Origin: a virus
DNA: 64,000 nt
Virus record (IMG/VR): IMGVR_UViG_3300046007_003718
Coordinates: 32,001 to 96,000 of that record
Reading direction: 5' to 3' (one strand)
Part shown: positions 1-42,127 of the stretch, one piece after another
Layout of the letters: each line of letters begins with the position of its first letter
Position numbering within the stretch: position 1 is the first letter of the stretch
Translations under genes and position numbers: made by a program
The notes under the pieces: generated by a model
The model's input: the letters and a program-made list of their open reading frames with translations, nothing else
What the model was told of the DNA's origin: nothing
Databases searched by the model: none

Positions 1-3000
1 TGTTGCATACTCACCAAAAGTCATCTTTTCAACAGGAGAAGTCATATGAAAAAGTTCTCCAGTATCTGGATTATAAAGTCCACGATAAGACTTGCTTAAA
101 TCACTTCCTATCCACCCATTATCTATTAAAGTTTGTTGATGAATATCTTCCCAGTCGCCTGCAATATGCATTTTTCCATCAGGATCAATTACGGCTGCAT
201 GAAATCCCTCTATCCAATGGCTTTTCTTTTTCCATTTAGATTCTTTATACCCAACAGGCTGAATAATAAGATCATATGGATGTTTGCCATGATCAAAGTG
301 GAATGACCAGCGCTTCTTTTCTTCGTAAAGTTTTAGATCTTCTATTGCGTGGCCATCTTGCTCTTTAGCCTCGGGGTCAATCTTTTTATTGTCATGAGGG
401 TTTTTCTTATTTATATATCCATTTTTAAGTTGCTTAAGCCACTTAAGAGTTTGCTTCTTTACTTCCTCCCAACTTCCGGTTGTGAGGATATCGTGGCCCA
501 ACTCTCCATCAAGGACGGCTTCCCACGCATCTTCTTTAGATGTTTTCCATTTAGACATTCTCATCTGGGCCACCTCTGCTGGGGAATGACGATTATATCT
601 ATTTACATCGTATCCAACATATGGATTTCTTTCAGGCTCTCCCGAAAACATTTTTACCTCTGATACTGGAATGTCAGCATCTTCAGCAGCCTTAAGCCAT
701 TCTTTTTCGGTTTTATATGGAGATATAAAATGTTCTGGGCTATTAAACCATTCAAAACCCAGTGGCCATTGCTTTTCAGTATCATCTGTGCTGTAATCCC
801 AACTATTTTGAAGTTTGTTCCACTCTTCGGGAGTTGTCATATGTAACAACTCGCCAGTATCCTTGTTGTAAAGACCACGATGATATTTACGCAGTCCTAG
901 ATCGCTAAATAAACTTCCGTGAAAATGATTCCAATCTTTAGCGACTCTCATTTCGCCATTTGGAGTAATAATTGCTGCATAATAATCCTCTAACCAATGG
1001 CCTTTTTTCTTCCATTTAGAAACTTTTGGCATAAACTCTTCTGAATCTAAGAGATTAAAATCTTCTTTTTTGTTTTCACCGTGCCAAAGTTTCTTAAGAG
1101 GCTCATCTCCATATTCATCTGCATCTTTTTCGTACATTAATTTAAAATCTCTAATAGGAATATTTGACTGATTGGCAGCATCTCTCCAATAAGTTTCATG
1201 CTCTAAAGGATTTATGGCCTCATCTTTACTTAGATATTCATAACCGGGGGACATATTCTCATGCTCTTCTGAAGAGGTCATGTGGATAAGTTCTCCAGTT
1301 TTATGATTATAAAGTCCACGATATTGAGGATAACCGCCAATATCCCAATGCGTTGCGTGCCAAGTATCGTCTTCGTCAATTACATTTCCATTACCATCAA
1401 CAATAACCATTCCCGGAGGAGCAACTTCCATTTTCCCATGTTGATTGATTATTGCAGCGCTAAATCCTTCAATCCAATGCGCTTCTTTTTTGTTTCCAGT
1501 ACGTTTTGGTGCAGGAGAAGCAAAAGTAATTTGATATTCATGCTTATAATTCTCTTCTGGTTTATTCCAAAGAAATTTAAAATCTTCTGGAGATTCTTCC
1601 GGTATGTCTCTTTTGTGCATTACATGAACAGATCCAATAGGAATATGTTTTTTATCAACTACATTTAGTTTATCGCCACCCTTTAATAAACCACTAAGAT
1701 TGGGATTCTTGCCATTTTCATCAACGGGTCCATAATCGCCCATCTCTCCAGCCGGTTCAATAATGTCAACAGGCTTTTTTGCAGCATCCATCCAAACTTT
1801 TTGATGCTCTTCGGGGGTAGCATCTAAAGCCTCTCTATTTGGCAAGATATCGTCGTATCTATTTTTTACATATTCTGTTGGTGAACTTAAATGAATTACT
1901 TCTTTTAATTCTGGATTATATAACCCGCGATAATCAGGGAAAGTACCATTTGCTGCGTGAATATTCCAATGATTCATACCTTCGTGATTTGCAAGAATCA
2001 TTCTATATCCACCATTTTCTTCATCAGGAATTAAAGTTGTTGAGTACCATCCGGGGAAATAAGTTCCTCGTTTTTTAATGCTTCCAGTCTTTGTATCGTA
2101 TCCGCCTTGTGCTATTTCCCAAGGAGTTAGAGGACGTTTTCTTTCGCGCATTCTCATCTCTCTAGATACTTCTTCAGGCATTTCCAAATCTGCAACATTT
2201 AGATCTTCCAAGTGCCCTGTCTGATTGTTTAATACGCGAATAGAATCTAATTCGATGTTATTTTGTTCAGCAAGTTGTCTCCAGAATGCTTCCATTCTGT
2301 CGCGCTCATCTTGATCTAGATGTTTGAAGTTATATTCTGCTTCATTCCAAAAATCGGGGTGAGACATATGAATAAAATCTTTTGTGACTGGATTATAGAG
2401 GCCTCTTGCTGTATGATAATTATAATAGTCCGTGCGACTATCCTTATCTGCGACAGCCTTTCTCATGGCTTTTGTGCCAAGATCATTTATATAATCTGCT
2501 GTCACGCCTCCGTGGGTCAGTTTATCATTGAAACCCACATCCATGTGCCAAACGTCGGTGTCTGGGTCTCTTAACGCAACTGTTGCATGATATCCATCTA
2601 CCCAGTATGAGAGTTTGGACATATTATCTAATGCAATTAGAATCGCAGCCTTTTGAGAAAAACCTGCTTTGATTAGAGATTGTTCCATTTCTTGTTGCAT
2701 ATCTAGTTTACTTTTCTTTTCAGGAAGGTCTTTGGGGCTTTGCCCCTCAACATATTCACAAGCCTGAGCGCGAGTCATTCCTTTAGGTGGCTTAATTGAT
2801 CCATTGCAGATTGCTTGCATATATCTGAACTGAGCCTTACTGCGGGCTGGGGCTTCTTTAATCATCCATTTGGACTTAATAGAAGGAAGAGGTAAACGTC
2901 GTTTAGAACCATATTCTTGATAATACTTATCAATTGCATCTTTAATATCCATATCTTTTGCAGCACGACCGACCCAATTTTCTTTATAGACAGGATCTGA

Positions 3001-5127
3001 TTCTTCGATTATTGGATATCTTCTCATAAAGTCTGCAAAAAGATTTGCATCTATTTCCATCGGATGCTTAACATATTCCTCTTCAAACTTTTTAGCAACC
3101 TCTTCGTCTGTTAGGCTTGGATCTATTTTAGTTGGATCAAAATAAGCATCTCTCAACTCTTTTGTAAAGCGTTCTTCTTGGTGTTGATAAGCATGTTGCA
3201 ATTCATGCCAAAGTGCTTCGTTTGCAGATTCTGGAGAGATAAGAGGATTAATATAAATAAATCCACTTCTGTTCTTTCCTTGGGGAGATTCGTGAGTCCC
3301 CAATGCCGCTCTGTTCCAGTGGGTAAGGTCTGGTTTTTCTCTTCCTTTGAGTTGTGCCTGTTCTAAGGATAGAGGAAAAACATTATATTTACTTTCTAAT
3401 GGCCACTCTGGGTGATTGTATAGTCTTTCCAGATTCTCTTTATTCAATTGCCATCTGTGACCCCGAGGGTCTTTATTGTATTTGTATCTTTCTTCAATCT
3501 CTTCAGCAGAAGGCGCTGGGGCTTTTTCATATCCCTCACCGAATTCTTCTGCTTTTTCTGCTGGAGGAACGGATATTTTCCACTTAGACAGACTTACAAA
3601 ATCTTGTTTTTGTGCTTTTTCTTTCAATTTTGGATTTACTATATCTGCACCGATTGGCGTTGGAAGATTATCTTTCATCCATCTAAGAACGGCGAGAGAT
3701 AATCTTGGATATCTTTGATTAAAATTATCTACTGTTTCTTGTGCATATGGATAATAAGTCTTTGCATGACCTTGTTCATTTAATTTTTGTAAATATATTC
3801 TACTTCCGGGGTAATAACTCTGTCCATCCATATAAGTAGCAGGCACATTATAATGAATACTTTCTACATAAGTTGGATTTTTATATTCCGAATATGCACC
3901 TTCAAGATCGTTAGGATCGCTAAAATCTTCGCCATATTCCAATGGATCAGTTTCCACATAATGATTAAATAATTCTGGGTGATTTAAATTATATTCCATT
4001 CCATAAACAATTTGAAGTTTTTCTGGATCCCAAAAAGATATGTTGTGATTGATTTGAGAACGTTGAGACAAGTAAAACCTATCTTTAGACAACATTCCGC
4101 TAGGGACTTCAGTTAATGAACGAGTAAGAGCATCAGAATCTATTTCTGCAATAGGAATAACTCCATATCTTGCAAAATTAGGAACTAATTCATGAACTAT
4201 TGCATAACCCGAAGGTATCTCATACTCGTCAATATTTCTTACATCTATTGGAGTTGCTTTTTCTGACGAAACGACTACCCAAGACTGTTTTTCCATTTCG
4301 TCAAGTAGTTTAGAATAAAAGCCCCATCCTCCGATTGGATCTTTATATGTATCAGGTTGAGGATTATTCTTGCGACGAACTATTCTCCATTTCTTACCAT
4401 TAATAATTTTTATCTCATCTTCATGCTCATCTGAAGTATCTTCATTTTGAATAGATTCAAAAGTTGTTTCTGCTGCGGGAGGACCGTCTGTGTGTTGGCG
4501 GTACATTCTATTAGCATCTTGTGCCATTTTCCACTTAGATTCTTTTTGTGGTCCATAAAGCGCACGTTGCATTAATTGTGCCCGAGTTGGGACTGGAGTA
4601 TCTTCATTTGCAGCAGAAAGCCCTTCATGTAAACCGGGAATAAAGCCAACTCTTTGATCAGTAAAACCACCACGATCAATTGCATACCCGGTTTGACCTA
4701 AGCATTCTGTTGCCAGTGCTTTTTGTGCATGAGGACTTGATAGAGCAAAATGTGTGGAACATGCATCATTTTCACCATGCCAGCCAAAGTCACCTTCAGT
4801 TGCTGCATGACCAAAAACATCATGAACGATTCTGAAGTTTATATTATCTTGTGGGGTCCAGATGGGGTGATCTGCATTTGCAGTAGAAACAATAAAATTT
4901 CTATTGTTTCTTATATCACGGATCATATCCTCAGAAGTATCATAAGGTTCTGGATCCTCTGTTTCTGTTACATTTAAGTGTTGTTTAATGTAATCAGCGT
5001 GTTCCTTAGATTCTTCTGCCAGTTGTTTCCAAGCATATTCTGCTTTTGGATCGTACTTAGGCAAAGCCGCATATCCAGCAGCCACATCTCCAATGTTGTG
5101 GCGAGAATGATCCATATTCCATTGCAT
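1..5127 (-). CDS. Giant modular polyprotein (>=1709 aa, 3' end outside window), probably virion/head-associated; HDxFGH domain, HExxH zincin domain, 5 RGLYN repeats
   Basis: Absent from the ORF track, consistent with no stop inside the window. ATG at 5127 (MQWNMDHSRHNIGDVAAGY). Frame read by hand over much of its length with no stop. Motifs FRIVHDVFGHA, HELQHAYQ...HPMEIDA, PARSKAQFRYM and repeated SKWK linkers. Confidence 0.85.
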   Translation of the reverse strand, partial: MQWNMDHSRHNIGDVAAGYAALPKYDPKAEYAWKQLAEESKEHADYIKQHLNVTETEDPEPYDTSEDMIRDIRNNRNFIVSTANADHPIWTPQDNINFRIVHDVFGHAATEGDFGWHGENDACSTHFALSSPHAQKALATECLGQTGYAIDRGGFTDQRVGFIPGLHEGLSAANEDTPVPTRAQLMQRALYGPQKESKWKMAQDANRMYRQHTDGPPAAETTFESIQNEDTSDEHEDEIKIINGKKWRIVRRKNNPQPDTYKDPIGGWGFYSKLLDEMEKQSWVVVSSEKATPIDVRNIDEYEIPSGYAIVHELVPNFARYGVIPIAEIDSDALTRSLTEVPSGMLSKDRFYLSQRSQINHNISFWDPEKLQIVYGMEYNLNHPELFNHYVETDPLEYGEDFSDPNDLEGAYSEYKNPTYVESIHYNVPATYMDGQSYYPGSRIYLQKLNEQGHAKTYYPYAQETVDNFNQRYPRLSLAVLRWMKDNLPTPIGADIVNPKLKEKAQKQDFVSLSKWKISVPPAEKAEEFGEGYEKAPAPSAEEIEERYKYNKDPRGHRWQLNKENLERLYNHPEWPLESKYNVFPLSLEQAQLKGREKPDLTHWNRAALGTHESPQGKNRSGFIYINPLISPESANEALWHELQHAYQHQEERFTKELRDAYFDPTKIDPSLTDEEVAKKFEEEYVKHPMEIDANLFADFMRRYPIIEESDPVYKENWVGRAAKDMDIKDAIDKYYQEYGSKRRLPLPSIKSKWMIKEAPARSKAQFRYMQAICNGSIKPPKGMTRAQACEYVEGQSPKDLPEKKSKLDMQQEMEQSLIKAGFSQKAAILIALDNMSKLSYWVDGYHATVALRDPDTDVWHMDVGFNDKLTHGGVTADYINDLGTKAMRKAVADKDSRTDYYNYHTARGLYNPVTKDFIHMSHPDFWNEAEYNFKHLDQDERDRMEAFWRQLAEQNNIELDSIRVLNNQTGHLEDLNVADLEMPEEVSREMRMRERKRPLTPWEIAQGGYDTKTGSIKKRGTYFPGWYSTTLIPDEENGGYRMILANHEGMNHWNIHAANGTFPDYRGLYNPELKEVIHLSSPTEYVKNRYDDILPNREALDATPEEHQKVWMDAAKKPVDIIEPAGEMGDYGPVDENGKNPNLSGLLKGGDKLNVVDKKHIPIGSVHVMHKRDIPEESPEDFKFLWNKPEENYKHEYQITFASPAPKRTGNKKEAHWIEGFSAAIINQHGKMEVAPPGMVIVDGNGNVIDEDDTWHATHWDIGGYPQYRGLYNHKTGELIHMTSSEEHENMSPGYEYLSKDEAINPLEHETYWRDAANQSNIPIRDFKLMYEKDADEYGDEPLKKLWHGENKKEDFNLLDSEEFMPKVSKWKKKGHWLEDYYAAIITPNGEMRVAKDWNHFHGSLFSDLGLRKYHRGLYNKDTGELLHMTTPEEWNKLQNSWDYSTDDTEKQWPLGFEWFNSPEHFISPYKTEKEWLKAAEDADIPVSEVKMFSGEPERNPYVGYDVNRYNRHSPAEVAQMRMSKWKTSKEDAWEAVLDGELGHDILTTGSWEEVKKQTLKWLKQLKNGYINKKNPHDNKKIDPEAKEQDGHAIEDLKLYEEKKRWSFHFDHGKHPYDLIIQPVGYKESKWKKKSHWIEGFHAAVIDPDGKMHIAGDWEDIHQQTLIDNGWIGSDLSKSYRGLYNPDTGELFHMTSPVEKMTFGEYAT

Positions 5128-9730: not shown

Positions 9731-10010
9731 TGAGAAGCGATCTACGGGCCGCGAATGGGGCTACCCATGCTAGGACATAGGCTAGGGGGTCGGAGGCCCG
9801 TGTAGGCCTTCCTGTGGCTTCCTGTGCATGGTCCCGTGGATGCCAGCCCCCGTGTCTGGTGGGCCAGCCTGTTCTGTATGGGTCATGGCCGTTGGATGAA
9901 TCGCTGAGAGGCTCTGTATGGGCCGCGCCTCGGGGTACCCATGCTAGACCCTTGCCCACCACCTCGGAGGCCGTCCTAGGCCCTCCTGTGGCCTCGGAGG
10001 CATGGTCCCC
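9731..10010. repeat. Two tandem copies (9731, 9905) of a ~105-bp dispersed non-coding element
   Basis: TGAGA.GC..T.TAYGGGCC.CG-N9-CCCATGCTAG...GGCC...GGCC; also at 12987 and 13958. Confidence 0.75.
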
Positions 10011-10016
10011 GGAACG

Positions 10017-10048
10017 ACAAAGGGCCACCCCGGAAGGTGGCCCTTGTC
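10017..10048 (-). terminator. Intrinsic terminator after helicase C-half
   Basis: aagggccacc-ccggaa-ggtggccctt hairpin. Confidence 0.7.
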
Positions 10049-10072
10049 TCCTGCCCGTTTATCCCGTGACCC

Positions 10073-11110
10073 CTAGAAGGCCGTCACCTCCTCCACCTCA
10101 TCCTCGGACAGCAGGCCCGCCTCCACGATGAAGGGCGAGACCCCGGTGATGTTGCGCCCGTAGACGGAGGTGCTGCTGACGAACAGAACGTCCTCGGCGC
10201 GGGTCATGGCGACGTATGCCATGCGGCGCTCCTCCTCAACGTCCTGCGGGGTCTTGGCGAGCGCGTGGGGCAGCAGGCCCTCGCTCATCCCGGCGATGAA
10301 CACGACCGGCCATTCCAGCCCCTTGGAGCGGTGGATGCTGAGGATGGTCACGGCGTCGTCCTCGTTCTCGCCCCGGAGGTCGGAGGCCTTGGCGGTCACG
10401 CTCTCCTGCTCCACGAACCATGCGACGAACGCCGCGAGGTCGTCCCCGAACTCGGCCCCGGAGAGGGCTACGTCCTCCACGATTGCGATGGAGCCGTCGC
10501 CGTTGGTCTCGGGGGTCTCGGTGTCCTCCTCGGCCTGATCGCGCAGCCATGCGGCCACCCCGGAGTCCTCAGCGATGCCGCGCACAATGTCAATCACGGG
10601 CACCTTGCCGACCATCTCACGGTACTTGCGAATGAGGGCGATGAAGGCGTCCATGTTGTCCTTCTGGCGACGGTTTATACGGGCGTCCTTAAGGCCAAAG
10701 AACGGGTCGTTCGGGCAGGCAGCGTAGGCCTGACGGGCGACACCGGCACCAAGGAACCGCGAGGGCGTGGACAGGGCCGTGGTCAGGGCCTCCTCGTCGG
10801 CGTTGCCGACGACCACGCGCAGGTAAGAGGTGATCGCCTGAGTCTGGTACCGCTTCCAAAACGACGGGGAACCGATGATGCGAAAGGTGAAGCCAGCGCG
10901 GGTAAACGCGCTTTCCAGCGGGCGGGTCTGACGGTTGGTACGGACCAGCACGGCGATGCTCGCGCCGGGGACACCGGCATCGCGCAGGGCCTTGATCTGG
11001 GTGGCGATGTTGTCGGCCTCCTCGCCCTCGTCGTTGTAGTGCGCGTAGTTGATGGGGTCCAGCCCGGTGGCCGGGATGATGAACTCAGGGATATCGGTGG
11101 TGGTGTCCAT
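10073..11110 (-). CDS. uvrD: UvrD/PcrA/Rep SF1 helicase, C-terminal half (2A/2B domains)
   Basis: AVLVRTNRQ, SIHRSKGLEW (motif V), EERRMAYVAMTRA (motif VI); own TAAGGAG RBS. Confidence 0.9.
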   Translation of the reverse strand: MDTTTDIPEFIIPATGLDPINYAHYNDEGEEADNIATQIKALRDAGVPGASIAVLVRTNRQTRPLESAFTRAGFTFRIIGSPSFWKRYQTQAITSYLRVVVGNADEEALTTALSTPSRFLGAGVARQAYAACPNDPFFGLKDARINRRQKDNMDAFIALIRKYREMVGKVPVIDIVRGIAEDSGVAAWLRDQAEEDTETPETNGDGSIAIVEDVALSGAEFGDDLAAFVAWFVEQESVTAKASDLRGENEDDAVTILSIHRSKGLEWPVVFIAGMSEGLLPHALAKTPQDVEEERRMAYVAMTRAEDVLFVSSTSVYGRNITGVSPFIVEAGLLSEDEVEEVTAF

Positions 11111-11135
11111 GTGGTCTCCTTAGTCGTGTAGAGGC

Positions 11136-11185
11136 ATCGTACAGGAAGGGCCGGGAGGATGCAAGCCCTCCCGGCCCCTCGTTTA
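11136..11185 (-). promoter_or_regulatory. Sigma70-type promoter overlapping a hairpin
   Basis: TTGCAT-N17-TACGAT; -35 sits in the loop of gggccgggagg/cctcccggccc; TAAACG upstream. Confidence 0.7.
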
Positions 11186-11191
11186 TCCGGG

Positions 11192-12271
11192 CTACCCGGC
11201 CAGCACCTCCACCGGGACGCCCTCAGCCTCGTCGTGGTCACGGTGCGGGGCGACCTCCTTGCCCAGCCGCTCCTTGTTGTGGGCGATGAGGCGGGCCGCA
11301 GCCTCCACGATGGGGCGACGGGAGCGGTAGTTGGTACCAAGGTTCACGACCGTCACCTCGCCCTTAGTCTGGGCGATGAACTCGGCAGGGACCGCGCCCC
11401 GGAACGAGTAGATGCTCTGGTCGTCGTCCCCGACCATCGTGAGGTTGGAGGTCTGCGATGCCAGCACCCGCATGAGGCCGAACTGCACCGGGTTGCAGTC
11501 CTGCGCCTCGTCCACGAACACCCACTTGACGCGGCCGATCACGGCCTCGCGCACCTTGTCGTCCTTGGCGGCAGCGAGACCCCGGATGCCCATGCATGAG
11601 AAGGTGACGCTAATCACGCCGCCCTGCCGACGCTTCCAGCCCCGGTCGCGGCCCTTACCCTGAACCGCCCAACCCTCGTCCAGCAGGCGCTCCATGATCT
11701 TGTAAACGGTGCCCACCACCGGGTCGGCATCGGGCAGGGAGAGGTACTGCTCGGCGGTGAGGTTCTGGTCCATGATCTTGGACACGGCCTTGGCGATCTT
11801 GCCAGCCTTGCGGGGCATGTCCACGCCGTACTCGGAGCCGCCCCACTCGCTGTCGTTGGCGAGGTTGTGGCCGAACGGGCAGTAGCGCGAGGGAGCCTCT
11901 ACGATGCCGCGCACCATGCCTGTCACCTGACTCGGGGACAGCAGGGAGCCGCCGTACTTGCCAGCGTTTATCCGCTTACCCTTCTGCTGGCGGTAGAACT
12001 TGTACCCCAGCGAGTGCAGGGTGCCAACGTGGGCCAGCCGCTCCACGACCTCATCACCGACAAGGGTGGCAAGGCGGGACTTCATCTCCTCGGCGGCAGC
12101 CGTGGTGAAGGTAGCCAGCACGATGCTCTCGGGGGCCTCGCCCTCGGAGATGAGGCGGGCGACACGGTGAACCAGCACGCGGGTCTTACCGGAACCAGCA
12201 CCAGCGTTAATGACCAGCGGCCCCTCGCCGTGGTCAATCGCCGTCTGCTGCTCGGGACTCATGGTAGCCAT
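11192..12271 (-). CDS. uvrD: UvrD/PcrA/Rep SF1 helicase, N-terminal half
   Basis: SPEQ (Q), AGAGSGKT (I), TFTTAAAEEM (Ia), GTLHSLG, DEAQD (II), GDDDQSIYSFRGA (III), NYRS. Start set at ATG 12271 after GAGGAGG. Confidence 0.9.
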   Translation of the reverse strand: MATMSPEQQTAIDHGEGPLVINAGAGSGKTRVLVHRVARLISEGEAPESIVLATFTTAAAEEMKSRLATLVGDEVVERLAHVGTLHSLGYKFYRQQKGKRINAGKYGGSLLSPSQVTGMVRGIVEAPSRYCPFGHNLANDSEWGGSEYGVDMPRKAGKIAKAVSKIMDQNLTAEQYLSLPDADPVVGTVYKIMERLLDEGWAVQGKGRDRGWKRRQGGVISVTFSCMGIRGLAAAKDDKVREAVIGRVKWVFVDEAQDCNPVQFGLMRVLASQTSNLTMVGDDDQSIYSFRGAVPAEFIAQTKGEVTVVNLGTNYRSRRPIVEAAARLIAHNKERLGKEVAPHRDHDEAEGVPVEVLAG

Positions 12272-12315
12272 GCTCTTTCCTCCTCGTTCGGCGGGGCCGT
12301 TCCCCGTGTTCACGC

Positions 12316-12356
12316 ATCGTACCACAGGTGGTTCTGAGATTGCAAGTCCTCGTTTA
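12316..12356 (-). promoter_or_regulatory. Early promoter, TAAACG class
   Basis: TAAACG-N5-TTGCAA-N18-TACGAT with TGn extension. Confidence 0.75.
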
Positions 12357-12399
12357 GACGGGGTGCCGCATTGGCGTTTGGGCGCGAGTAGCACACCTT

Positions 12400-12960
12400 G
12401 TCTGAATCCACAAGTACCCCTTGTGCGTACTTGCTACAAAGTCGGTCCCGAGATTGTAAAGTCCCTGCTCCGAGCAGGCACTTTCACCAGAGCCGTTCTA
12501 CGGGCCTTGGAGGGATTCCCGAGGGTCGTTACACCTGAGACCTGTAAAGTCCCTGCTCGTAGCGACTTTCGGGGGTTGGCACGGAGGCCCGAGAATCGCC
12601 TGAGAGCGATTGTGGTGAGACTTTGTGCGAGATTGACACAAGCAAGTTGAGGTCGCTTGTGCGGATTCAGCACAATCTCAGTTGCTTGCACTCGCAAGGA
12701 CTCAGTTGCACTTGCAAGTACCTTGTAGCACTTTGTCACAAGAATCCCGTTAAAGCCGTTGGGTTTCTTGGGTATAAAAGCCTGAGATGTTGTTGGGATT
12801 CTTGTGCTGATTTCGCACAATGTTGTTGCAGTAGCAAGTACCTTGTTCAGTTTCGCACAAGGTCACGCTTGTAGGTATCCGCACAATGTAGTTGCAAGTG
12901 CAAGCACAGCGTTTACACGCGGTCCTCGGGGCCTTACACGATTGGGGAGAGAATGTCAAG
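12400..12960. repeat. Non-coding array of short degenerate repeats
   Basis: GCACAAT...GTTGC x3 (~12670, 12815, 12881); CAAGTACC(CC)TTGT x3; TGTAAAGTCCCTGCTC x2; no credible ORF. Confidence 0.65.
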
Positions 12961-12986
12961 GGCTACGGGCCTCAGATTTGACGCCC

Positions 12987-13092
12987 TGAGAGGCGATATA
13001 CGGGCCTCGGAGGGCCTACCCCATGCTAGGACATTCGGGAAGCATGGAAGGCCCGTGTGTGGCCTCCTGTGGCCTCCTAGGGGGTATCGGGG
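12987..13092. repeat. Third copy of the ~105-bp dispersed element
   Basis: tgagaggcgatatacgggcctcggagggcctaccccatgctaggac. Confidence 0.75.
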
Positions 13093-13170
13093 TATCCGGG
13101 CCTGTCCATCAACGAAAGAGGGGGCCTTGCGGCCCCCTCCCTGTCCTGCTCCTCGTTTGTACGCGGTGCC

Positions 13171-13536
13171 CTAGACCGCTGCCTGCTCGGCCCGCTGCTC
13201 ACGGGCGAGGTCGTACAGAGCATTGGCGGCTGCGGTCTTGGTTGTGTAGAGGCCGACCTTCTCGCCACCACGGTCGTAGGCGTGCCACTTGCCGTTCGCC
13301 CGATAGACCTCGCCCAGATACATCTCGCTGCGCCAGCGGTAGTAGCCAACCGCGTGCGGATTCCGCATCTTAACGACCTCGCGGCCCTCGGTCACGATGC
13401 CGTCCTCCCATGCGTAGATGCCCTGCGATGCGTAGATGGTGCTGACCAGAGGCTCATGGGCGCTAACCTCACGATGCCCCCATCGGATGTTCTCGTTGGG
13501 GACATACTCCTCGTTCTGGATGGTCTGGATTCTCAT
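13171..13536 (-). CDS. Hypothetical early protein
   Basis: AGGAGA RBS; terminator hairpin at 13117-13142. Confidence 0.65.
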   Translation of the reverse strand: MRIQTIQNEEYVPNENIRWGHREVSAHEPLVSTIYASQGIYAWEDGIVTEGREVVKMRNPHAVGYYRWRSEMYLGEVYRANGKWHAYDRGGEKVGLYTTKTAAANALYDLAREQRAEQAAV

Positions 13537-13594
13537 GGGATTCTCCTGTTCGTTGGCTGCTGAGGCAGTCTAGCACGTTTGTACCGCGTGCGCC

Positions 13595-13885
13595 CTAGCC
13601 CTCCTGCGCCTCCATGTAGTCAAAGATTGCGTGAACGCCCTCCTTGGTGAACCAGATCACGGGGTCGCCGGGGTCGTAGTGGTCGTCCTCGTCCACGAAC
13701 ATCAGGCCCTTGGCGACCAGAGACCCGATCACCCCATCGGCCTCATGCTTGTTTCCGATGATGCGCTGGGCACCAGAGAGGTCAAGGTTGGAGTAGTTGT
13801 CGCTCAGTTGCCCCTCCCGGTCGTCGTAGTTGAGGGCGGCGGTCAAAAGGATTGCCTCGCGCTCGGTGATGTTGCTCATGGTCAT
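13595..13885 (-). CDS. Hypothetical early protein, possible winged helix
   Basis: GGGAG RBS; ITEREAILL...GVIGSLVAKGLM pattern. Confidence 0.6.
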   Translation of the reverse strand: MTMSNITEREAILLTAALNYDDREGQLSDNYSNLDLSGAQRIIGNKHEADGVIGSLVAKGLMFVDEDDHYDPGDPVIWFTKEGVHAIFDYMEAQEG

Positions 13886-13957
13886 GCTCCCTGTTCGTTG
13901 GCTGCCAGAGCAGCGTATCACAGATTCCAGACGTAGGCCCGATTCGCTGTGAAGCCC

Positions 13958-14060
13958 TGAGAGGCGTTCTACGGGCCTCGGATGCCTTCCCCCATGCTAG
14001 ACCCTTCCCAGACCATGCGAGGCCCTTCTAGGCCCCTTAGAATCGCTCCTAGGCCCTACC
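13958..14060. repeat. Fourth copy of the ~105-bp dispersed element
   Basis: tgagaggcgttctacgggcctcggatgccttcccccatgctagacc. Confidence 0.75.
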
Positions 14061-14140
14061 GGGGGTCACGACCCCATCCCCGGATGCAGAAAGGGGGCCT
14101 TGCGGCCCCCTCCCCGTTTACACGCCCTGTACCTCCCGGC

Positions 14141-14323
14141 CTAGTAGTCGTCCAGCACCTCGTCCAGAAGGTCGCGCAGGCGCTCCACCTCATCCCCGGT
14201 CATGGCGACCGACACCTGCGGGCCGTCCAGCGTGGGGAAGGCGTGGAGGGTGATGTTGGCATCCCCGTCGCCCTTGTCAGTCACGAACACCACGGGGCCG
14301 TGGTAGGTCTCAATGCTGCTCAT
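14141..14323 (-). CDS. Small hypothetical protein
   Basis: AGGAG RBS; TAAACGATG stop/start junction. Confidence 0.6.
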   Translation of the reverse strand: MSSIETYHGPVVFVTDKGDGDANITLHAFPTLDGPQVSVAMTGDEVERLRDLLDEVLDDY

Positions 14324-14326
14324 CGT

Positions 14327-14530
14327 TTACACGCTCCTGTTCTCGTTGTTGAGGTGATGCTTGCCGCCACACTTGGGGCAAGCCCGGACGAACGTGAGTC
14401 GCCCGGTGCTGTTCTCCCTGAGCCAGAGGGTGCCCTCCTTCTCGGGCTTGCCGACGTACATGCTCATCCCCCGCCCGGTGACGGTGTTGCCACCGGGGCA
14501 GGGAGCAGAGATGAATGAGGTGGCCCCCAT
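14327..14530 (-). CDS. Small Cys/His (Zn-ribbon-like) protein
   Basis: CPKCGGKHH; TAAACGATG junction. Confidence 0.55.
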   Translation of the reverse strand: MGATSFISAPCPGGNTVTGRGMSMYVGKPEKEGTLWLRENSTGRLTFVRACPKCGGKHHLNNENRSV

Positions 14531-14533
14531 CGT

Positions 14534-14836
14534 TTACACCCCCTTCTCGTCGTTGGGAAGGAACATGGCCTCGCGCTTGGCAGCCTTGGCGAACGACGAC
14601 CCGCTGATGGAGTACCTGCGGGGCCGGGACGGGGCGGCGATCAGAGCCGCGTGGAACTCGGTCGCCAGCGACTCGGCCTCGTAGGCGCTCGCCAGAGCAA
14701 CGTCGGCCTCCAACCCCTCGGGCAGAGCGTCGGCCTGCCGGTGGTACTCCTCGGCACGGGCTTCCAGCGCGTCCACGATGAACGCGGCCTCACCGATGCA
14801 GAGGTTACGGATGGAGACTCGGTACGGATTACCCAT
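14534..14836 (-). CDS. Hypothetical early protein
   Basis: Start reassigned to MGNPYRV after GAAAGGA RBS and promoter. Confidence 0.6.
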   Translation of the reverse strand: MGNPYRVSIRNLCIGEAAFIVDALEARAEEYHRQADALPEGLEADVALASAYEAESLATEFHAALIAAPSRPRRYSISGSSFAKAAKREAMFLPNDEKGV

Positions 14837-14865
14837 GATGCTGTCCTTTCGGTTGGTGTTGGGGC

Positions 14866-14904
14866 ATTGTAGCACGCCCCTCAGACGGATGCCCTCCCCG
14901 TTTA
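14866..14904 (-). promoter_or_regulatory. Early promoter, TAAACG class
   Basis: TAAACG-N4-GGGCAT-N17-TACAAT; near-duplicate of 15345-15383. Confidence 0.65.
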
Positions 14905-14954
14905 TCCGGGGAGGGGAGGCAGGGCAGGGCGGTGGCCCGCCCTGCCCCTGTCGT

Positions 14955-15308
14955 TTAGACCCCCTGCTCGGTGGTCTCCTCGTCCTGCGGCCCCTCCTCG
15001 TACTCGCGGGCGGCAGCGAGCAGCACCTCGGCAATCTCGCGGGCCTGCTGGGCGGTGAACTTGGCGTGAACGTATCCCTTCTCCTGCCCCTCGGAGGTTG
15101 CCAGCGTCCCCAGCACCATGACCGTCACCTCACCGAACTTTCCGCCAGCGATCTGGTAGTCCTGCCGGTGAGTCGTGAGGGAGTCGTTTCGCTCATGGGT
15201 GAATGAGGTGCCGTCGTTGGTGACGTAGGTGTACGGGCCGACGCCCTCGCCCTGCACCGTGTAGGTGGTGTAGTCGTCGTTCTCGTAGTTGCTGATGTTG
15301 ATGCTCAC
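14955..15308 (-). CDS. Hypothetical early protein
   Basis: GTG after GAGGAG; acidic tail. Confidence 0.6.
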   Translation of the reverse strand: MSINISNYENDDYTTYTVQGEGVGPYTYVTNDGTSFTHERNDSLTTHRQDYQIAGGKFGEVTVMVLGTLATSEGQEKGYVHAKFTAQQAREIAEVLLAAAREYEEGPQDEETTEQGV

Positions 15309-15344
15309 GATGAAACTCCTCGGTTCAGTTGCTTGCTGAGGGGA

Positions 15345-15383
15345 AGTGTACCACACCCCTCGGACGGATGCCCTGCCCGTTTA
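15345..15383 (-). promoter_or_regulatory. Early promoter, TAAACG class
   Basis: TAAACG-N4-GGGCAT-N17-TACACT. Confidence 0.65.
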
Positions 15384-15441
15384 TTCGGGGAGGGGCGAGG
15401 GAGGGGGAGGGGAGGTGGCCCCTCCCCCTCCGGGGTGGTGA

Positions 15442-16203
15442 CTAGGCCCCGTGGGGAGCCGTCACCTTGGGCTTGCGGGTCTTGCGGGCGACCACCTGCA
15501 TACGCTCGCCGCAGCAGGGGCAGATCGGCGTGCCAGCCGCTTCCAGCCACTTGGCCGTCATGTTGAGGTTGTAAACGTCCTTGCCCTCACCGCTGGGGTC
15601 GCAGCCACGGGTGCCGTCCTCCTGCGGGGTGCAGCAGGCGACCTTCACCAGACGGGTGGCCTGCGGCTTGTGGACGACGTTCATGCCCTTGTGCGGGTAC
15701 TCGCCCAGCGACTCGCGCAGGCGGGCAGTCAGGGCCACGAAACGGTCCCCGGCGTAGGTGGCGGTGGGCTTGCCAGCGAGGCCGATGGTGCGAATCATCT
15801 CCACGAACGGACCCTTGTGGCCGTTCTTGTTGCCGTCAATGGCGTGGACAATCTCATGGGCGAGAACGTCCAGCACACCCGGCTCGCGCTCGTCGTTGCC
15901 CAGCGTGTCCTTGCGGCCCGTCTTGGGGCCGATAGCGTGGGCAAGGGCGGGCGACACGGTGATGTGCCGCACGTTGCCCTCGGGCGAGGAAGTCTCATGG
16001 TAGGCCATGCCGACCACGGAACCCTTGCCGCTCTTACCCAGCCACGCCCGCTTGTGCGAAAAGGACAGGTGCGGGGCGACGGTGTAGCCCTCGGGCATCG
16101 GGAAGCCAGCCTCGGCCAGAATGGTGAGCAGGCCGTCAGTTGCGGCGGCGATGTAGGACTCAGGCGTGTCGTGGACCTGAGCGTGAATCGGTGAGTAACC
16201 CAT
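15442..16203 (-). CDS. SprT-like zinc metalloprotease with C-terminal Zn ribbon
   Basis: VLAHEIVH...GHKGPF...IGL; C-terminal CPCC; AAGGAG RBS; TTGACA promoter upstream. Confidence 0.75.
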   Translation of the reverse strand: MGYSPIHAQVHDTPESYIAAATDGLLTILAEAGFPMPEGYTVAPHLSFSHKRAWLGKSGKGSVVGMAYHETSSPEGNVRHITVSPALAHAIGPKTGRKDTLGNDEREPGVLDVLAHEIVHAIDGNKNGHKGPFVEMIRTIGLAGKPTATYAGDRFVALTARLRESLGEYPHKGMNVVHKPQATRLVKVACCTPQEDGTRGCDPSGEGKDVYNLNMTAKWLEAAGTPICPCCGERMQVVARKTRKPKVTAPHGA

Positions 16204-31811: not shown

Positions 31812-32198
31812 CTAATCATCTGACTCATCATCCACCTCTTTCCAAAATCTAAATACTGGACTAATAAGCCCAGCGCGAATTGCCGCAGCAACCGCTGACG
31901 GAGGGATTCCTATATTCATATATTCTTCCACTTCCCGGATTGTAATTGATTCTGTTCTCTGCTCTACTTCAAAATTCCGGGTTAACTGCACATACATTAC
32001 TTCAGAATCTGGTTCTCTAAAGTATTTAATACCTTGTTCAGCAAATGCTTGAGAAAGTTCAGAAAACCATTTTTGATAAGGATCTTGTGAAATCTTTTCT
32101 TGCTGATTCTTTATGTGCAATTCATTAAACTGAGCGCGAAATTCTTCAACCATCTCTGGGTCAAAAAGATCATCGAACTCATCTTTGTTCATAGTCAT
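31812..32198 (-). CDS. Hypothetical protein
   Basis: Operon context. Confidence 0.55.
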   Translation of the reverse strand: MTMNKDEFDDLFDPEMVEEFRAQFNELHIKNQQEKISQDPYQKWFSELSQAFAEQGIKYFREPDSEVMYVQLTRNFEVEQRTESITIREVEEYMNIGIPPSAVAAAIRAGLISPVFRFWKEVDDESDD

Positions 32199-34605: not shown

Positions 34606-36735
34606 CTATTCTTTTTCATCTTCACTAGAGATGTTATCATCTTTTACTTCTTCTGGAAGTATATCATCTCTGATTAATGAAATCTTTTTAGCATTCTTTG
34701 GGCGGTTTATCTTTTCTACAAGCCTACCGTCCTTCTCTTCAAGGACTTTACTCATACTTGATCTTCCGCCCGGAGGTTGGATGGGAGTTCTTTCATTAGA
34801 AACTTCAGGCATACCGCCCGGAGTTGGGCTTATTGGCTGTGCGGCTGGAGTTGTACCACCCGGCTCTGGTGGGATAAGAATGCCACCGGGGCCTTGCTCT
34901 GGGGCACCCTCTTCACCTTCTGCTGGCGGCATCATTCCACCACCGGGGACCATTTCTTCATCCATACCGGGGAATTGATTTGGGTCAAGACCAGCATTAG
35001 GATCTAGTCCAGACATAATGATTTCCTGCAACAAGTCTGGAGGAATGGGAAGATTCTGAGCCTTAAGCAGACGATAAATCTTGACCTTAGCCTCTTGCTG
35101 TGCAACAGTCTTTTCGATAGCCTCTTCTTCAAACCTTGCAAGTTCTTCCTTGAAGGTGTAAGGCAGACCAACCATAAATGTCTGATCTGAAATAGGAACT
35201 CCAGAAGCCTTGAGTTGGGCAAGGAATTGACGCTGAGTAGCCTCATCTCTAAGATCAAGAACTTTCATGTTAATTTCTGGAATAAGCAATTTGTGTCGTT
35301 CGACAACCATGATGTTGCCCTCTTCATCATATTCAATATGCTCTTCCATGATTGGGACGCGAGTATCACCACGCTGTTCGTAATCGTAATGTTCATTAGC
35401 CTCAGCAACAACTCGGGCGCGGTCCATGAAGTGCCTCTTCAAGAAGTTCTGGTATGTACGAAGGATTTGATTAAGGAACTCAGCCTGTAGTGCTGATGAT
35501 GCATATGGTTGTGCATTAGAACCAGCAGAAAGTAGGCTTGGGTTTACACCAAACAACTGCATTAAACGACGTTCAATTCTGTCGAAGTCATCGCCTAGAT
35601 TTGGCATCTGCTCACGACCAAATACATTTTGAATATCTACGCCGAAGTGGTGGACAAGAACACGGAAGTCTGAAGCGAGAGCGATATCAATATCATCGCG
35701 GAAGGCCTCACACTCATCTGGACCGGGCATCCAAGGTACACCATCTCCAATATCCTGAACACCTAACTTGGCTAGAATCAGTGGGGAGTACAAACGCTCT
35801 GCAATAGCATCCTGAGAAGCAAGCAACTTCTCTTCATGCATAAGTGTGCGTAATCCTCTAAGAAGCAGAGGGGTTCCGTGAATGTCCCAATCGTTAATCT
35901 TGAAAGCAACCTGCTTCATAAGAACGTTCGAAACAGGAATATTTTCATTCTTGATCAAATATGGAATAAGTTCCGGCCAATCCTGAACAAGAGTTTCGTA
36001 GTCTGTAGTAGGACTCTTCTTTGCCGCGAGTTCCTTTAGGAATTCAGGTGGTTTAATCTCAAACTGCTGAGTTCCAAGAAGCGGATACTGCTTTAGTACC
36101 ACATCTTCTGGATTGATAAGTTCTTCTCTTTCCCAAATACCAAGAGTCTCATTAAATGAGCCGAGAGGAAATGCCTGTCCCACTGTCCAGTATTCACGGC
36201 CAAGACGTACAAGGAATTCCTGATAGTCAAGACGATCAAAGAAAAGATCCTCGTACCATTGTGTGAGTTTTGGATCTTTAGAACTTAGTTCCATTCCTAC
36301 TAAGGGGAACCTAGTAAAAATATCAATCAAGATAGGAACAAGGTAATGCGTCATGTAGTATAGACGCAGCCACTGATACAACTTCTGACGATGCGTATCA
36401 TTTTGAATATTCCAAGGAATACCAGAGAGTTCCCAGTATTCCACCGGATCGTAAAAACGAGGAATAGCAGCAATATAGTCTCCACCGCCCGCTGCTGTTT
36501 TGTTAATAGAAGAAACCCTACGGTTTCTAGAGAACTCAGACGCAAGAGCGCGGTTGGCTCTCATATCTTTAATTGTGTTCTCTAGACTGTCAGGACCGTT
36601 AGGGTCACTAGTAGCAAGGTTGTACGACTCCCAAGCCGCAATCTTCTTACGAAGGTCGTGCTTAGGGAGCGTACCTCCCATTTCCTGAATTGCTTTTACC
36701 TTCTGATCTGATGAAAGATGAGGAAATTCTGGCAT
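34606..36735 (-). CDS. Portal protein
   Basis: Size and position near terminase; GTPLLLRGLRTL...QDAIAERLYSPLILAKLG resembles large actinophage portals; Pro/Gly-rich tail. Confidence 0.75.
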   Translation of the reverse strand: MPEFPHLSSDQKVKAIQEMGGTLPKHDLRKKIAAWESYNLATSDPNGPDSLENTIKDMRANRALASEFSRNRRVSSINKTAAGGGDYIAAIPRFYDPVEYWELSGIPWNIQNDTHRQKLYQWLRLYYMTHYLVPILIDIFTRFPLVGMELSSKDPKLTQWYEDLFFDRLDYQEFLVRLGREYWTVGQAFPLGSFNETLGIWEREELINPEDVVLKQYPLLGTQQFEIKPPEFLKELAAKKSPTTDYETLVQDWPELIPYLIKNENIPVSNVLMKQVAFKINDWDIHGTPLLLRGLRTLMHEEKLLASQDAIAERLYSPLILAKLGVQDIGDGVPWMPGPDECEAFRDDIDIALASDFRVLVHHFGVDIQNVFGREQMPNLGDDFDRIERRLMQLFGVNPSLLSAGSNAQPYASSALQAEFLNQILRTYQNFLKRHFMDRARVVAEANEHYDYEQRGDTRVPIMEEHIEYDEEGNIMVVERHKLLIPEINMKVLDLRDEATQRQFLAQLKASGVPISDQTFMVGLPYTFKEELARFEEEAIEKTVAQQEAKVKIYRLLKAQNLPIPPDLLQEIIMSGLDPNAGLDPNQFPGMDEEMVPGGGMMPPAEGEEGAPEQGPGGILIPPEPGGTTPAAQPISPTPGGMPEVSNERTPIQPPGGRSSMSKVLEEKDGRLVEKINRPKNAKKISLIRDDILPEEVKDDNISSEDEKE

Positions 36736-36778: not shown

Positions 36779-39637
36779 TTATCTTTTAGAACCAGATCCC
36801 CAGCCAATGAAATTATCATCATATACTCCAAGTGACTGGATTGCTTGTTCTGGGGTCATACCATCAGACATAAGTTTTTCAACTTCATTGTCTATTAGAT
36901 CAAAATCTAGAGGTGCTGCGCCTTCTTTAGAATTTTCTTGCTTTAATTCCTTAAGACGCTTATGCAAATCGGCTAATTCGTCAGAAGCGATATCATCATC
37001 GCCGGGATAAATATACCCACCGTCAAGCACGCCGCGTTTTAGTTTAGCAATCTCTTTTTCAATCTCTTCTATTTCATCACTTCTATTTGCTGAAGTCTTA
37101 GCATTTTCTATTTGCTTAACTTTAGCAGCAGCCCAAGTGCGACCGGCGTTTCCGCCCCATGCTAACCAAGCAACATCCCAAGGAGTTATTTCGCCTTGCT
37201 TTGCTTTTTGCGAACGACCACCCGCATGACGCTCAAAGAATGAGTGCATACGCTTTACATGCTCGGGAGTTAATTCTTGCCCTTCGGCAATTTTCTTTGC
37301 TCTAGTTAGGGTTGCTGATTCAAATCCATCTCCAGCCTTACCTTCTGAGTGATACTTAATGCCACGCCTTGCAGCACTACGCACACCTTCTGGTGGTACT
37401 AGATTTAGATCGGATGCCTCCTTGACAGAGGCGCTAGATTTTTTTGAATCGCTTCCAAAAATAGGGTCTCTTTTGTTTCTTTGATTTTCAGATGCTAAAT
37501 CGTATGCGTGCCTTTGAGCATCTTGATGTGCTGTTTCGCCATGAAACTCTTTTATCTTTTGTCCATTACTGGCATTAAGCACTACAGCATACATCCCATC
37601 TTTAGTTGATCCATACGCAAAATCTCCGAGCCTATCAAATTCCATTGCCTTGTCATTTGATAAAATTATTGAAGATTTTTTTGGAGCATTATCCTCTTGC
37701 TTAACACCCTTAGCGTTCATATCTGAAGTGGCCTGAGCCTTTTCTTTATCTTTAGTATTTTCAGAATAAGGTGCTTCTCCACCGGGCTGAATAAACTCAC
37801 GAACTGGCTCACCAAAGTCAGTAAAGTCTTGATGTTCTAATCCCAATTCTTTTTGCTTTTGCTTAACATCTAAATTTTTGTACTTCTCGCCTTCTGATCC
37901 GCCAATTTCTTTATCAATACTCATTCTGCTTGGATCAGAAGCGCCTGCGGGTAGCCCCGGTTCATTTTGCTGAAGTTGGGCCATCTCGCCAACGGCTTCA
38001 ACGAGAATAGAAGCGGTCTTCTCTGGGATTCCCTGAGCAACATAGAATTCTTCTAAGGCCTTTACGCTCGCACCACGAAGATAATCGTAACGATTTGGTC
38101 CTCTTGTCTTGAATTGAGGCTCCCCCTCAATCATCTCTTTTCTTCTACGAGCATTTTCTTTCATCTTTTCTTCTGCTCTTGATTGATCTTCAATCATATC
38201 TTCATACTCGCTCTTTTCAGAAGAAGGGCTATTTAATTCAATAGTAGGTTGCTCTTGAGCCTCTAGTTCATCCATCTTTCTTGCTCTAGCAGGCAGTGGC
38301 TTGTCTTTGCTTGACCAGTCTGGAGCATTGTAACCAACATCATTATTGCGGTCCATAAAGCCACGAAGCATTTCTCTCCAACCAGCATTCTTTTGAATCC
38401 ATTCTGGTACAAGGGAATCTGCGTTCTCTAAAATAAATGCAGCCTTTTTCTTTTCACGATCTGCATCACACTTCTCACAAGAGCCGGGAGAGCAAGGCTT
38501 AGTTCCGGGGACACGCTTGTACCCATCCCAGCAATTACATTCCTTAGCCTCTCTTACTGAAGAATTCTTTCTTTCATCTCTTTCGTTCCATCTTGATTGG
38601 TATTCATGAGCCGCATCGAATGCTTCATCAAGACTATCGTAAACATCACGAACATCATGCCCCGAGAATATCAAGTTACCTCCCTTCCCCTCGTAGTAAC
38701 CGGGAGGGATGTGAGATAACTGATAGCGAGTCTCCCTACGTCCGGGGTAATCGGGTGGATCAAAGTCTAGAAGGCCCATATCAAGTTGCTCTTCTCTACT
38801 TTGAGGATCAATATTCCACTCACCATGCGGTCCCTTGGCAGTGTAATAATCGTCCCCGTGGTCTTGCCAATCAATGTTAGCGGTCTTTACTACTGAAGAT
38901 TCTTTCTTTTCTTCTTCTTCGTCCTCTTCTTCTTTTTCTTCAGAATCTGACTCCTCATCCTCTTCATCTTCTTCCTTGGATTCATCTTCTTCGGTCCAAG
39001 GCTTGTCCCATTCAGCCTGCCTGATAGTCGCCTCTTTTAAATCAGTTCCTGCTGCTTCGTCTAAGGAGTGATCAACACCACTATCATAAAGGGCGCTTAG
39101 AGCCTTACTAATTTGTTCTTCTAGCGACCAATACTTATCACTACCTTCCTCTTCACTATCAATACCATCTAATTCACTCTTCAGATGCTCAAGTTCCATC
39201 TCTAATTGATTCTGGTCTTGATTCCAGCCCCCCTGAAGTGCAGATTGTACAAGTGGCTTATACTGATTCCAATACAGTTCAATCTGATCTAAGTCCATAT
39301 TGTAGCCAACATAATCATTGATTAGATCTGAATGTGCTTCGTCTTTTCCAGCAAATGGATCAACATATGGGTTTGCCTTCTTAACAGCAGCCTCTTTTAA
39401 ATGAGTTACTGTTGCATCATAGATAGTCTCTGAAGGAATGTCATACTCTGCGGCATACTTATCCGCAACTGAACGAATGTCATCAGAAAGGAAATCAACT
39501 CTCTCTGGATTCTTGGCTACGAAACTTTCAAAACGCTGTTCGCATTCTAACTGTGAGGCCATAATAGCCTTAGTTGGATTAATTCTTTCAGCCTCTTGTC
39601 TCATATTGAGTTCTAGGCTCTCAAACATATCGCTCAT
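36779..39637 (-). CDS. Large modular head-associated protein
   Basis: Modules CWDGYKRVPGTK and PPEGVRSAARRG...VKRMHSFFERH...AWLAWGG, separated by KEA/KTA/REA/KNA sites; TAATG coupling. Confidence 0.7.
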   Translation of the reverse strand: MSDMFESLELNMRQEAERINPTKAIMASQLECEQRFESFVAKNPERVDFLSDDIRSVADKYAAEYDIPSETIYDATVTHLKEAAVKKANPYVDPFAGKDEAHSDLINDYVGYNMDLDQIELYWNQYKPLVQSALQGGWNQDQNQLEMELEHLKSELDGIDSEEEGSDKYWSLEEQISKALSALYDSGVDHSLDEAAGTDLKEATIRQAEWDKPWTEEDESKEEDEEDEESDSEEKEEEDEEEEKKESSVVKTANIDWQDHGDDYYTAKGPHGEWNIDPQSREEQLDMGLLDFDPPDYPGRRETRYQLSHIPPGYYEGKGGNLIFSGHDVRDVYDSLDEAFDAAHEYQSRWNERDERKNSSVREAKECNCWDGYKRVPGTKPCSPGSCEKCDADREKKKAAFILENADSLVPEWIQKNAGWREMLRGFMDRNNDVGYNAPDWSSKDKPLPARARKMDELEAQEQPTIELNSPSSEKSEYEDMIEDQSRAEEKMKENARRRKEMIEGEPQFKTRGPNRYDYLRGASVKALEEFYVAQGIPEKTASILVEAVGEMAQLQQNEPGLPAGASDPSRMSIDKEIGGSEGEKYKNLDVKQKQKELGLEHQDFTDFGEPVREFIQPGGEAPYSENTKDKEKAQATSDMNAKGVKQEDNAPKKSSIILSNDKAMEFDRLGDFAYGSTKDGMYAVVLNASNGQKIKEFHGETAHQDAQRHAYDLASENQRNKRDPIFGSDSKKSSASVKEASDLNLVPPEGVRSAARRGIKYHSEGKAGDGFESATLTRAKKIAEGQELTPEHVKRMHSFFERHAGGRSQKAKQGEITPWDVAWLAWGGNAGRTWAAAKVKQIENAKTSANRSDEIEEIEKEIAKLKRGVLDGGYIYPGDDDIASDELADLHKRLKELKQENSKEGAAPLDFDLIDNEVEKLMSDGMTPEQAIQSLGVYDDNFIGWGSGSKR

Positions 39638-42093: not shown

Positions 42094-42127
42094 AAGATTA
42101 TCCTTTAGTAAATGCATTTACTACCAA

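Follow-up and report, generated by a model that had tools for sequence, protein, structure and literature searches.

Why should a very long phage protein repeat one short peptide at the seams between otherwise unrelated modules, and does that peptide mark the places at which the protein is cut? The question arises at a locus of an uncultured lake-water phage represented by a contig of 110,395 bp, of which we analysed a window of 64,000 nucleotides (positions 32,001 to 96,000 of IMG/VR record IMGVR_UViG_3300046007_003718). An earlier note, made from the letters of the window, had proposed that K-x-[A/S/G], often following SKWK, delimits the modules of this protein and is the cleavage code of a capsid maturation protease, with SKWK as a possible capsid-targeting or docking signal.

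A 2165-residue polyprotein built of separate modules

The stretch flagged in that note is part of a single minus-strand open reading frame (ORF) that fills window positions 1-5127 and is open at the window edge. The full polyprotein comprises 2165 aa (genome 30630-37127; L001:10630-17127, minus strand) and about 14 self-contained modules, and an identical 2165-aa protein was recorded from five contigs, which excludes an assembly accident. Beyond the window lie the rest of RGLYN unit 5, RGLYN unit 6 (with the joint KKS/HWVDG, the slash marking the proposed junction), a C-terminal module, and the joint-like peptides SKWR (residue 1775) and GKWK (residue 1927). Within the window, the polyprotein is organised as follows.

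1-5127, minus strand: ORF, the part of the polyprotein inside the window, residues 1-1709
4540-5127, minus strand: module 1, residues 1-196, conserved N-terminal module with a PHROG 3170 match (function unknown)
4528-4539, minus strand: junction motif 1, KE-SKWK-MA
4315-4527, minus strand: module 2, residues 201-271, starting QDANRMYRQH; present in most relatives
4306-4314, minus strand: decayed junction SKL after module 2; relatives have SKWK there
3589-4305, minus strand: module 3, residues 275-513, which appears to be inserted within a junction motif (GFYSK/LL, then SLSK/WKIS)
3577-3588, minus strand: junction motif 2, SL-SKWK-IS
2875-3576, minus strand: module 4, residues 518-751, zincin-like metallopeptidase with HELQH at 3193-3207 and the conserved Glu residues downstream of it
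2863-2874, minus strand: junction motif 3, IK-SKWM-IKEA
2617-2862, minus strand: module 5, residues 756-837, whose first ~50 residues match stand-alone 50-70-aa proteins
2704-2712, minus strand: decayed SKL junction in module 5
2608-2616, minus strand: K-L-S right before RGLYN unit 1, in MSKLS (a W-to-L variant of the motif)
1021-2607, minus strand: RGLYN units 1-3, residues 841-1369, separated by K-R-G (2065-2073) and K-E-A (1480-1488)
1000-1020, minus strand: junction motif 4, KV-SKWK-KKG
556-999, minus strand: RGLYN unit 4, residues 1377-1524
544-555, minus strand: junction motif 5, RM-SKWK-TS
241-543, minus strand: module 6, residues 1529-1629, a ~100-aa module between two motifs
220-240, minus strand: junction motif 6, KE-SKWK-KKS
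1-219, minus strand: first part of RGLYN unit 5 (residue 1637 onwards), with HW as the start of the modelled fold, right behind the motif

Most of these modules have no Pfam family match. Modules 1 and 6 matched nothing in Pfam or NCBIfam, module 6 matched no PHROG, and the Atlas gave nothing named for either; the feature profile of module 1 is similar to clusters of ~188-aa phage proteins. For the RGLYN unit, searches for a function returned no fold match above Z 3.5 and no Pfam match.

A word-indexed search recovered 32 mosaic relatives of the polyprotein, proteins of 1.4-3.2 kaa whose module content varies from one to the next and which include the Pfam domains ParBc, methyltransferase, PcfJ, 2H phosphoesterase and acetyltransferase. 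A search of IMG/VR for further relatives yielded only four loci, and among GenBank phages the sole match was to module 1, within a 511-aa mycobacteriophage protein. One related lineage encodes two adjacent polyproteins of 3236 and 1151 aa (L002:917-10627 and L002:10665-14120).

A recurrent peptide at the joints

Every junction on which the earlier note had built its proposal could be located. KLS/YWVDG, KRG/TYFPG, KEA/HWIEG, KKG/HWLED and KKS/HWIEG, and likewise SKWKMA, SKWKIS, SKWMIKEA/PARSKAQ and SKWKTS, are found in the minus-strand ORF at window 1-5127, and KEA/YYIDG is present in a 1024-aa ORF at window 58063-61137. SKW[KRM] occurs 7 times in the polyprotein against 0.04 expected, and [SG]KW[KRM], which adds one GKWK, occurs 8 times against 0.09; for both patterns, none of 2000 shuffles reached as high a count. 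In contrast, K-x-[ASG] taken by itself is found 34 times over the whole protein against 32.1 expected, a chance frequency that rules it out as a sufficient code. The K-x-small code of the note therefore survives in part, as a pattern that is non-random at the junctions only.

The 1024-aa ORF mentioned above carries a lone RGLYN module.

58348-58794, minus strand: lone RGLYN module in the 1024-aa protein, which is without SKW; K-E-A (58786-58794) stands before the module

This protein (58063-61137, minus strand) has a Gly-rich hydrophobic segment near residue 120-190 and its RGLYN module near the C-terminal end. It had no Pfam or PHROG match and may be another virion or ejection protein.

The full motif is essentially confined to the polyprotein: a search of all other proteins and of six reading frames of the genome gave no convincing SKW site, and a position matrix trained only on relatives found 8 sites in the polyprotein ORF and one elsewhere across the six frames of the 110-kb genome. 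Three more joints read SKL (0.68 expected, p = 0.03), and because two of them are SKW in relatives, we read these as decayed or variant copies of the motif. Two RGLYN-RGLYN joints retain K-x-small only; in one relative, the unit-2 type of RGLYN has a full SKWKKKS before it.

The same peptide recurs across the family. SKW occurs 4-11 times per protein in most of the relatives (~28 proteins), as well as in additional matches of an exhaustive HMMER search, and it precedes unrelated modules in relatives where the motif flanks are otherwise unrelated. Some 100 non-redundant contexts gave the consensus [KR]-[EQ]-S-K-W-K-[IK]-[AVSI]-[S], that is, [KR]-[EQ]-S-K-W-K-x(1-2)-small. K-x-[ASG] comes after SKW in 67 of 102 non-redundant contexts, and a small residue stands two positions past the K following SKW in 52% of cases, compared to a background of 18.6%. 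The residue following the proposed cut is highly variable. Alongside SKWK, the two-polyprotein lineage (L002) additionally has the longer joint variants RKHRKxIxDKW[EK] and WWKGS, which leave W-K-x-small as the shared core. Of the 43 distinct RGLYN-module starts in the family, 39 have K-x-small immediately before them, among them starts in distant relatives without SKW, and the K at position -3 from HW is invariant in 9 aligned RGLYN copies even though it lies outside the modelled fold. The most constrained core of the joint is (W)-K-x-small, immediately preceding the next module.

Modules begin and end at the motif

Homology within the family tends to break where the motif stands. A motif lay within 8 residues of 44-64% of the internal BLAST alignment ends (5.6% expected), and homology breakpoints at the motif were 8-11 times more frequent than expected. 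Sequence searches also found stand-alone homologues for at least three modules, with termini that correspond to the joints. Stand-alone peptidases of 185-282 aa were recovered, two of which start with MPPA, the sequence after SKWKIS in the polyprotein; dozens of stand-alone 50-70-aa proteins (starting PA..SK.Q) begin at the end of SKWMIKEA; and a stand-alone 107-aa protein ends in GYKE-DN at the point where the polyprotein reads GYKE-SKWK.

Module 6 also exists in ~100-aa stand-alone forms. Its identity is 84-99% in closer relatives and 48-54% in a few, in polyproteins that otherwise share little (the module is also seen at L002/L004:10001-10303), and it could serve as the virion anchor of the protein. 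The idea that module 6 is more conserved than virion proteins was dropped, as capsid protein identity amounts to 99-100% in these phages.

Structure prediction gave a similar picture of the joints. In the two AlphaFold models that were made, of the peptidase module and of RGLYN unit 5 (from alignments 8-9 rows deep), both motifs around the peptidase and the KESKWKKKS before RGLYN unit 5 had pLDDT below 50, and confident folds begin directly after these low-pLDDT motifs, that of RGLYN unit 5 at the HW that follows KKS. The motif is thus predicted to lie in disordered linkers. Breakpoints at the motif, predicted disordered linkers, and stand-alone homologues that end there support the earlier view of one gene whose many self-contained modules are split by a short code. 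Together, these data establish the motif, its position, and the autonomy and shuffling of the modules.

A prohead protease gene and K-x-small in other phage proteins

The polyprotein gene is directly upstream of tail-fibre-like genes, a prohead protease-scaffold protein, a 182-aa protein and the major capsid protein, all on the same strand, and the order polyprotein, tail-fibre-like, protease, capsid is kept in relative L004. The prohead protease forms the N-terminal part of an 823-aa protease-scaffold protein encoded 4 kb downstream of the polyprotein and conserved in all related records. Residues 107-261 of this protein (L001:4300-6771) match phrog_18299, 'head maturation protease' (E 1.5e-23); Pfam, NCBIfam and PDB sequence searches returned nothing, and its name comes from the PHROG match only. 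The full SKWK element is not in the major capsid protein, the 182-aa neighbour or the protease.

The K-x-small part of the joint behaved differently. From the polyprotein joints only, we derived the tripeptide K[LREKMIT][SGA] and tested it on the 87 other proteins. The most enriched was an 826-aa protein (12 occurrences, 3.9 expected), and the protease-scaffold protein itself had 17 occurrences with 7.3 expected (p about 0.001; with 87 proteins tested, the enrichment p-values lie near the limit that multiple testing sets). Also among the most enriched were a 196-aa neighbour, a 190-aa protein and a 956-aa protein. Reversed and permuted tripeptides showed no enrichment, and in the rest of the proteome the tripeptide occurred 108 times, compared to 106 expected. 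Two of the enriched proteins lie elsewhere in the window.

36779-42117, minus strand: 956-aa and 826-aa proteins between the terminase and portal genes, enriched in the junction-derived K-x-small tripeptide; possible further substrates

For the protease-scaffold protein, an orthologue of 64% identity retains 13 of the 17 sites, including two in a stretch where identity is 23%. The lysines at these sites are conserved in 14 of 17 cases compared to 43 of 61 for other lysines, which is not clearly better. In the capsid protein, a KLA stands at residues 18-20, at the start of the PHROG match.

Several features of the surrounding genes were observed alongside. In another record, the orthologue of the protease-scaffold protein (L016:472-3219) has a ~75-aa insertion just after an N-terminal K-E-A, and this insertion begins GSSLKKWQK. 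Across records L018-L020 the capsid protein is 99-100% identical, the protease-scaffold protein only 65-91%, and the polyproteins are largely different. The portal and large terminase genes (34606-36735 and 42128-44059, minus strand) are ~30 kb from the protease and capsid genes, all on one strand, and between the two groups stands a block of small genes, rich in G+C. Window 10001-16000 has 60-66% G+C in a phage that is otherwise 38-43% G+C.

The K-x-small enrichment is suggestive evidence in favour of the maturation protease that the earlier note had proposed, and it is a three-residue pattern that suggests the link to this particular prohead protease. The presence of a prohead protease gene 4 kb downstream and the enrichment of K-x-small in its product speak for that proposal, while the absence of SKWK from head proteins and the rivalry of an embedded zincin, which the note had not seen, count against it. 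The expectation of a protease rule other than a Glu-ended one agrees with the joints, which end in A, S or G after Lys.

A candidate cargo polyprotein

We lean towards a cargo polyprotein whose joints would serve as processing sites, with the prohead protease as the probable cutter. Such a polyvalent (cargo) polyprotein would comprise ~14 independently folding modules, arranged as beads on a string, among them the zincin peptidase, the six RGLYN units and several with small stand-alone counterparts elsewhere. It would be made late, together with the head genes, and would be loaded into the prohead, where a cut after the small residue at each joint would free the modules. The prohead protease encoded 4 kb downstream would probably make these cuts, applying a K-x-small rule that it may also apply to several head proteins, and SKW would be an extension peculiar to the polyprotein. 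With uniform joints, recombination at the motif can exchange whole modules from phage to phage.

The embedded zincin as an alternative protease

The main rival to the prohead protease is the polyprotein's own zincin, which could cut the joints in cis or in trans without the prohead protease being involved; we regard this as unlikely, though it is the alternative that fares best. That module 4 is a zincin is itself well indicated. The alignment of 8 family sequences shows no change at H641, E642, H645 or at two Glu further downstream, and nearly all of the top 50 structural matches of the model (pTM 0.79) are zincins, with modest Z of 6.3 or below. The best of these were PprI/IrrE (Z 6.3) and CapP (Z 5.6), followed by lethal factor, Wss1 and ArdC, and PprI and CapP are site-specific proteases. 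By sequence, the window protein scored 14.8 bits against Peptidase_M78 (cutoff 22), the module 4 profile had no match among PDB sequences, and the stand-alone homologue P0057 passed the threshold of Pfam DUF6782, 'putative metallopeptidase' (30.4 bits, cutoff 27).

A role for this peptidase at the joints would agree with the restriction of SKW to polyproteins of this kind, to the exclusion of head proteins. Processing by embedded metallopeptidases has also been predicted for polyvalent proteins of phages and conjugative elements (Iyer, Burroughs, Anand, de Souza and Aravind, 2017; PMC5512222), a precedent for the zincin reading. However, the distribution of the peptidase does not follow that of the motif. 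HExxH is missing from about half of the SKW-bearing relatives, and a search of three records of a zincin-less lineage, two of which extend oppositely from the gene and together probably cover the whole genome, found no homologue of the zincin module; relatives without the zincin still have the motif. Motifs flank the peptidase on both sides in this protein, which also counts against it, and zincins usually read the residue after the cut, the very position that is variable in the polyprotein. We consider the prohead protease the more likely reader of the motif, with the zincin as its main rival and an uncut joint as the null.

An uncut joint or a docking tag

According to the null, the motif is never cut and is a conserved flexible joint that supplies microhomology for cassette swaps or spacing for folding, the protein acting at full length. 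We find this doubtful, more so than cutting by the zincin. It draws on the coincidence of breakpoints with the motif, on the seeming insertion of module 3 inside a motif, and on codon usage: the Ser codon of the motif is TCT in 19 of 21 copies from three phages, compared to 44% of all Ser codons (the observation concerns, among others, window 229-240, 544-555, 1009-1020, 3577-3588 and 4528-4539). This bias may reflect spreading of the joint by recombination. Full-length action also has precedents in the N4 virion RNA polymerase and ArdC, which are delivered unprocessed (PMC5512222). Twelve bases are nonetheless too few for homologous recombination, and the Lys codons of the motif vary freely (AAA/AAG) while its flank preferences follow residue type rather than base, indicating that selection acts on the peptide. 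A plain spacer, for its part, would leave unexplained both the invariance of the Trp and that of K-x-small in SKW-less distant relatives. Module shuffling at the joint is real, yet it leaves the conservation of the peptide unexplained.

Least probable among the alternatives weighed here is that SKWK is a docking tag at the C-terminal ends of modules, contacting the capsid interior, the portal, DNA or a loading factor, with or without cutting. Several relatives terminate in the motif plus 2-5 residues (SKWKIC, SKW[QK][LT]AKV), one such ending being kept in two diverged versions, which suggests that the motif doubles as a C-terminal tag, and a basic and aromatic motif would suit nucleic acid binding. 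An uncut single polypeptide, however, would have no need of a dozen tags.

Two further candidates were rejected: off-frame ATG or lysine-rich slippery sequences at the motif, as the ATG is out of frame, the strand has no second long ORF and the codons vary; and self-cleavage at Ser via an acyl shift, which was ruled out by the motif's place in disordered linkers between unrelated folds.

It is conceivable, and we offer it tentatively, that 'cleavage codes' which differ from lineage to lineage enable tailed phages to fit a dozen or more swappable effectors into one gene. Here the code would be W-K-x-small, read by the capsid maturation protease, such that a single 6.5-kb gene would give rise to ~14 capsid-loaded proteins, and recombination there would bring in new effectors. 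Should the joints be cut, phage proteomes would be bigger than gene counts imply, the motif would be a direct means of dividing giant "hypothetical" phage proteins into working units, and anti-host or anti-defence activity could be assayed unit by unit. A cutting signal that is short and portable, together with the protease that reads it, would be a useful tool, and uniform joints would account for the free exchange of modules among such proteins.

Comparison with known systems

Proteins that are made as one product and cut at uniform joints are known from MARTX toxins, whose cysteine protease domain cuts after Leu, and from the polyproteins of RNA viruses. The phage polyprotein would resemble them in being cut at uniform joints into independent, swappable effectors, but the proteases and the mode of delivery are different and no homology is implied. 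A second parallel concerns the site. The R-site of herpesvirus assemblin is Tyr-Val-Lys-Ala/Ser, and phage prohead proteases share the assemblin fold. The putative scissile bond of the polyprotein would likewise have an aromatic P4 and a small P1 (W-K-x-A/S compared to Y-V-K-A), which is a resemblance only.

A further comparison is with the head cargos of other phages. The internal proteins and Alt of T4 are cut by gp21, and the inner-body proteins of phiKZ and 201phi2-1 are cut by gp175; the sites of both enzymes end in Glu ([LI]-x-E, [SAG]-x-E), and mostly one N-terminal targeting peptide is removed per protein. As in those phages, the prohead protease would here trim head cargo at a short motif that other head proteins may share. 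Unlike theirs, the polyprotein site would be K-x-small rather than Glu-ended; it occurs up to 13 times per chain and carries the extra SKW, which was not seen in the head proteins. DdrB of phage P1, a head protein whose C-terminal domain is a zincin, is known to be processed before packaging (PMC5512222), but the processing happens once and involves no repeated motif.

A literature search found no paper on SKWK in connection with phage and none that described such a junction code. The nearest counterparts of the polyprotein are the polyvalent proteins of Iyer et al. (PMC5512222). Like them, it is a giant multi-module protein that combines unrelated, separately occurring domains, is phage-encoded beside late and virion genes, and embeds a zincin-like metallopeptidase as a hub domain, and its relatives carry ParB, methyltransferase, PcfJ, 2H-phosphoesterase and acetyltransferase domains. 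In contrast to the account of polyvalent proteins in PMC5512222, which describes no joint peptide and in which the word 'linker' is absent, here a motif of 8-9 residues marks both the modules and the breakpoints between them.
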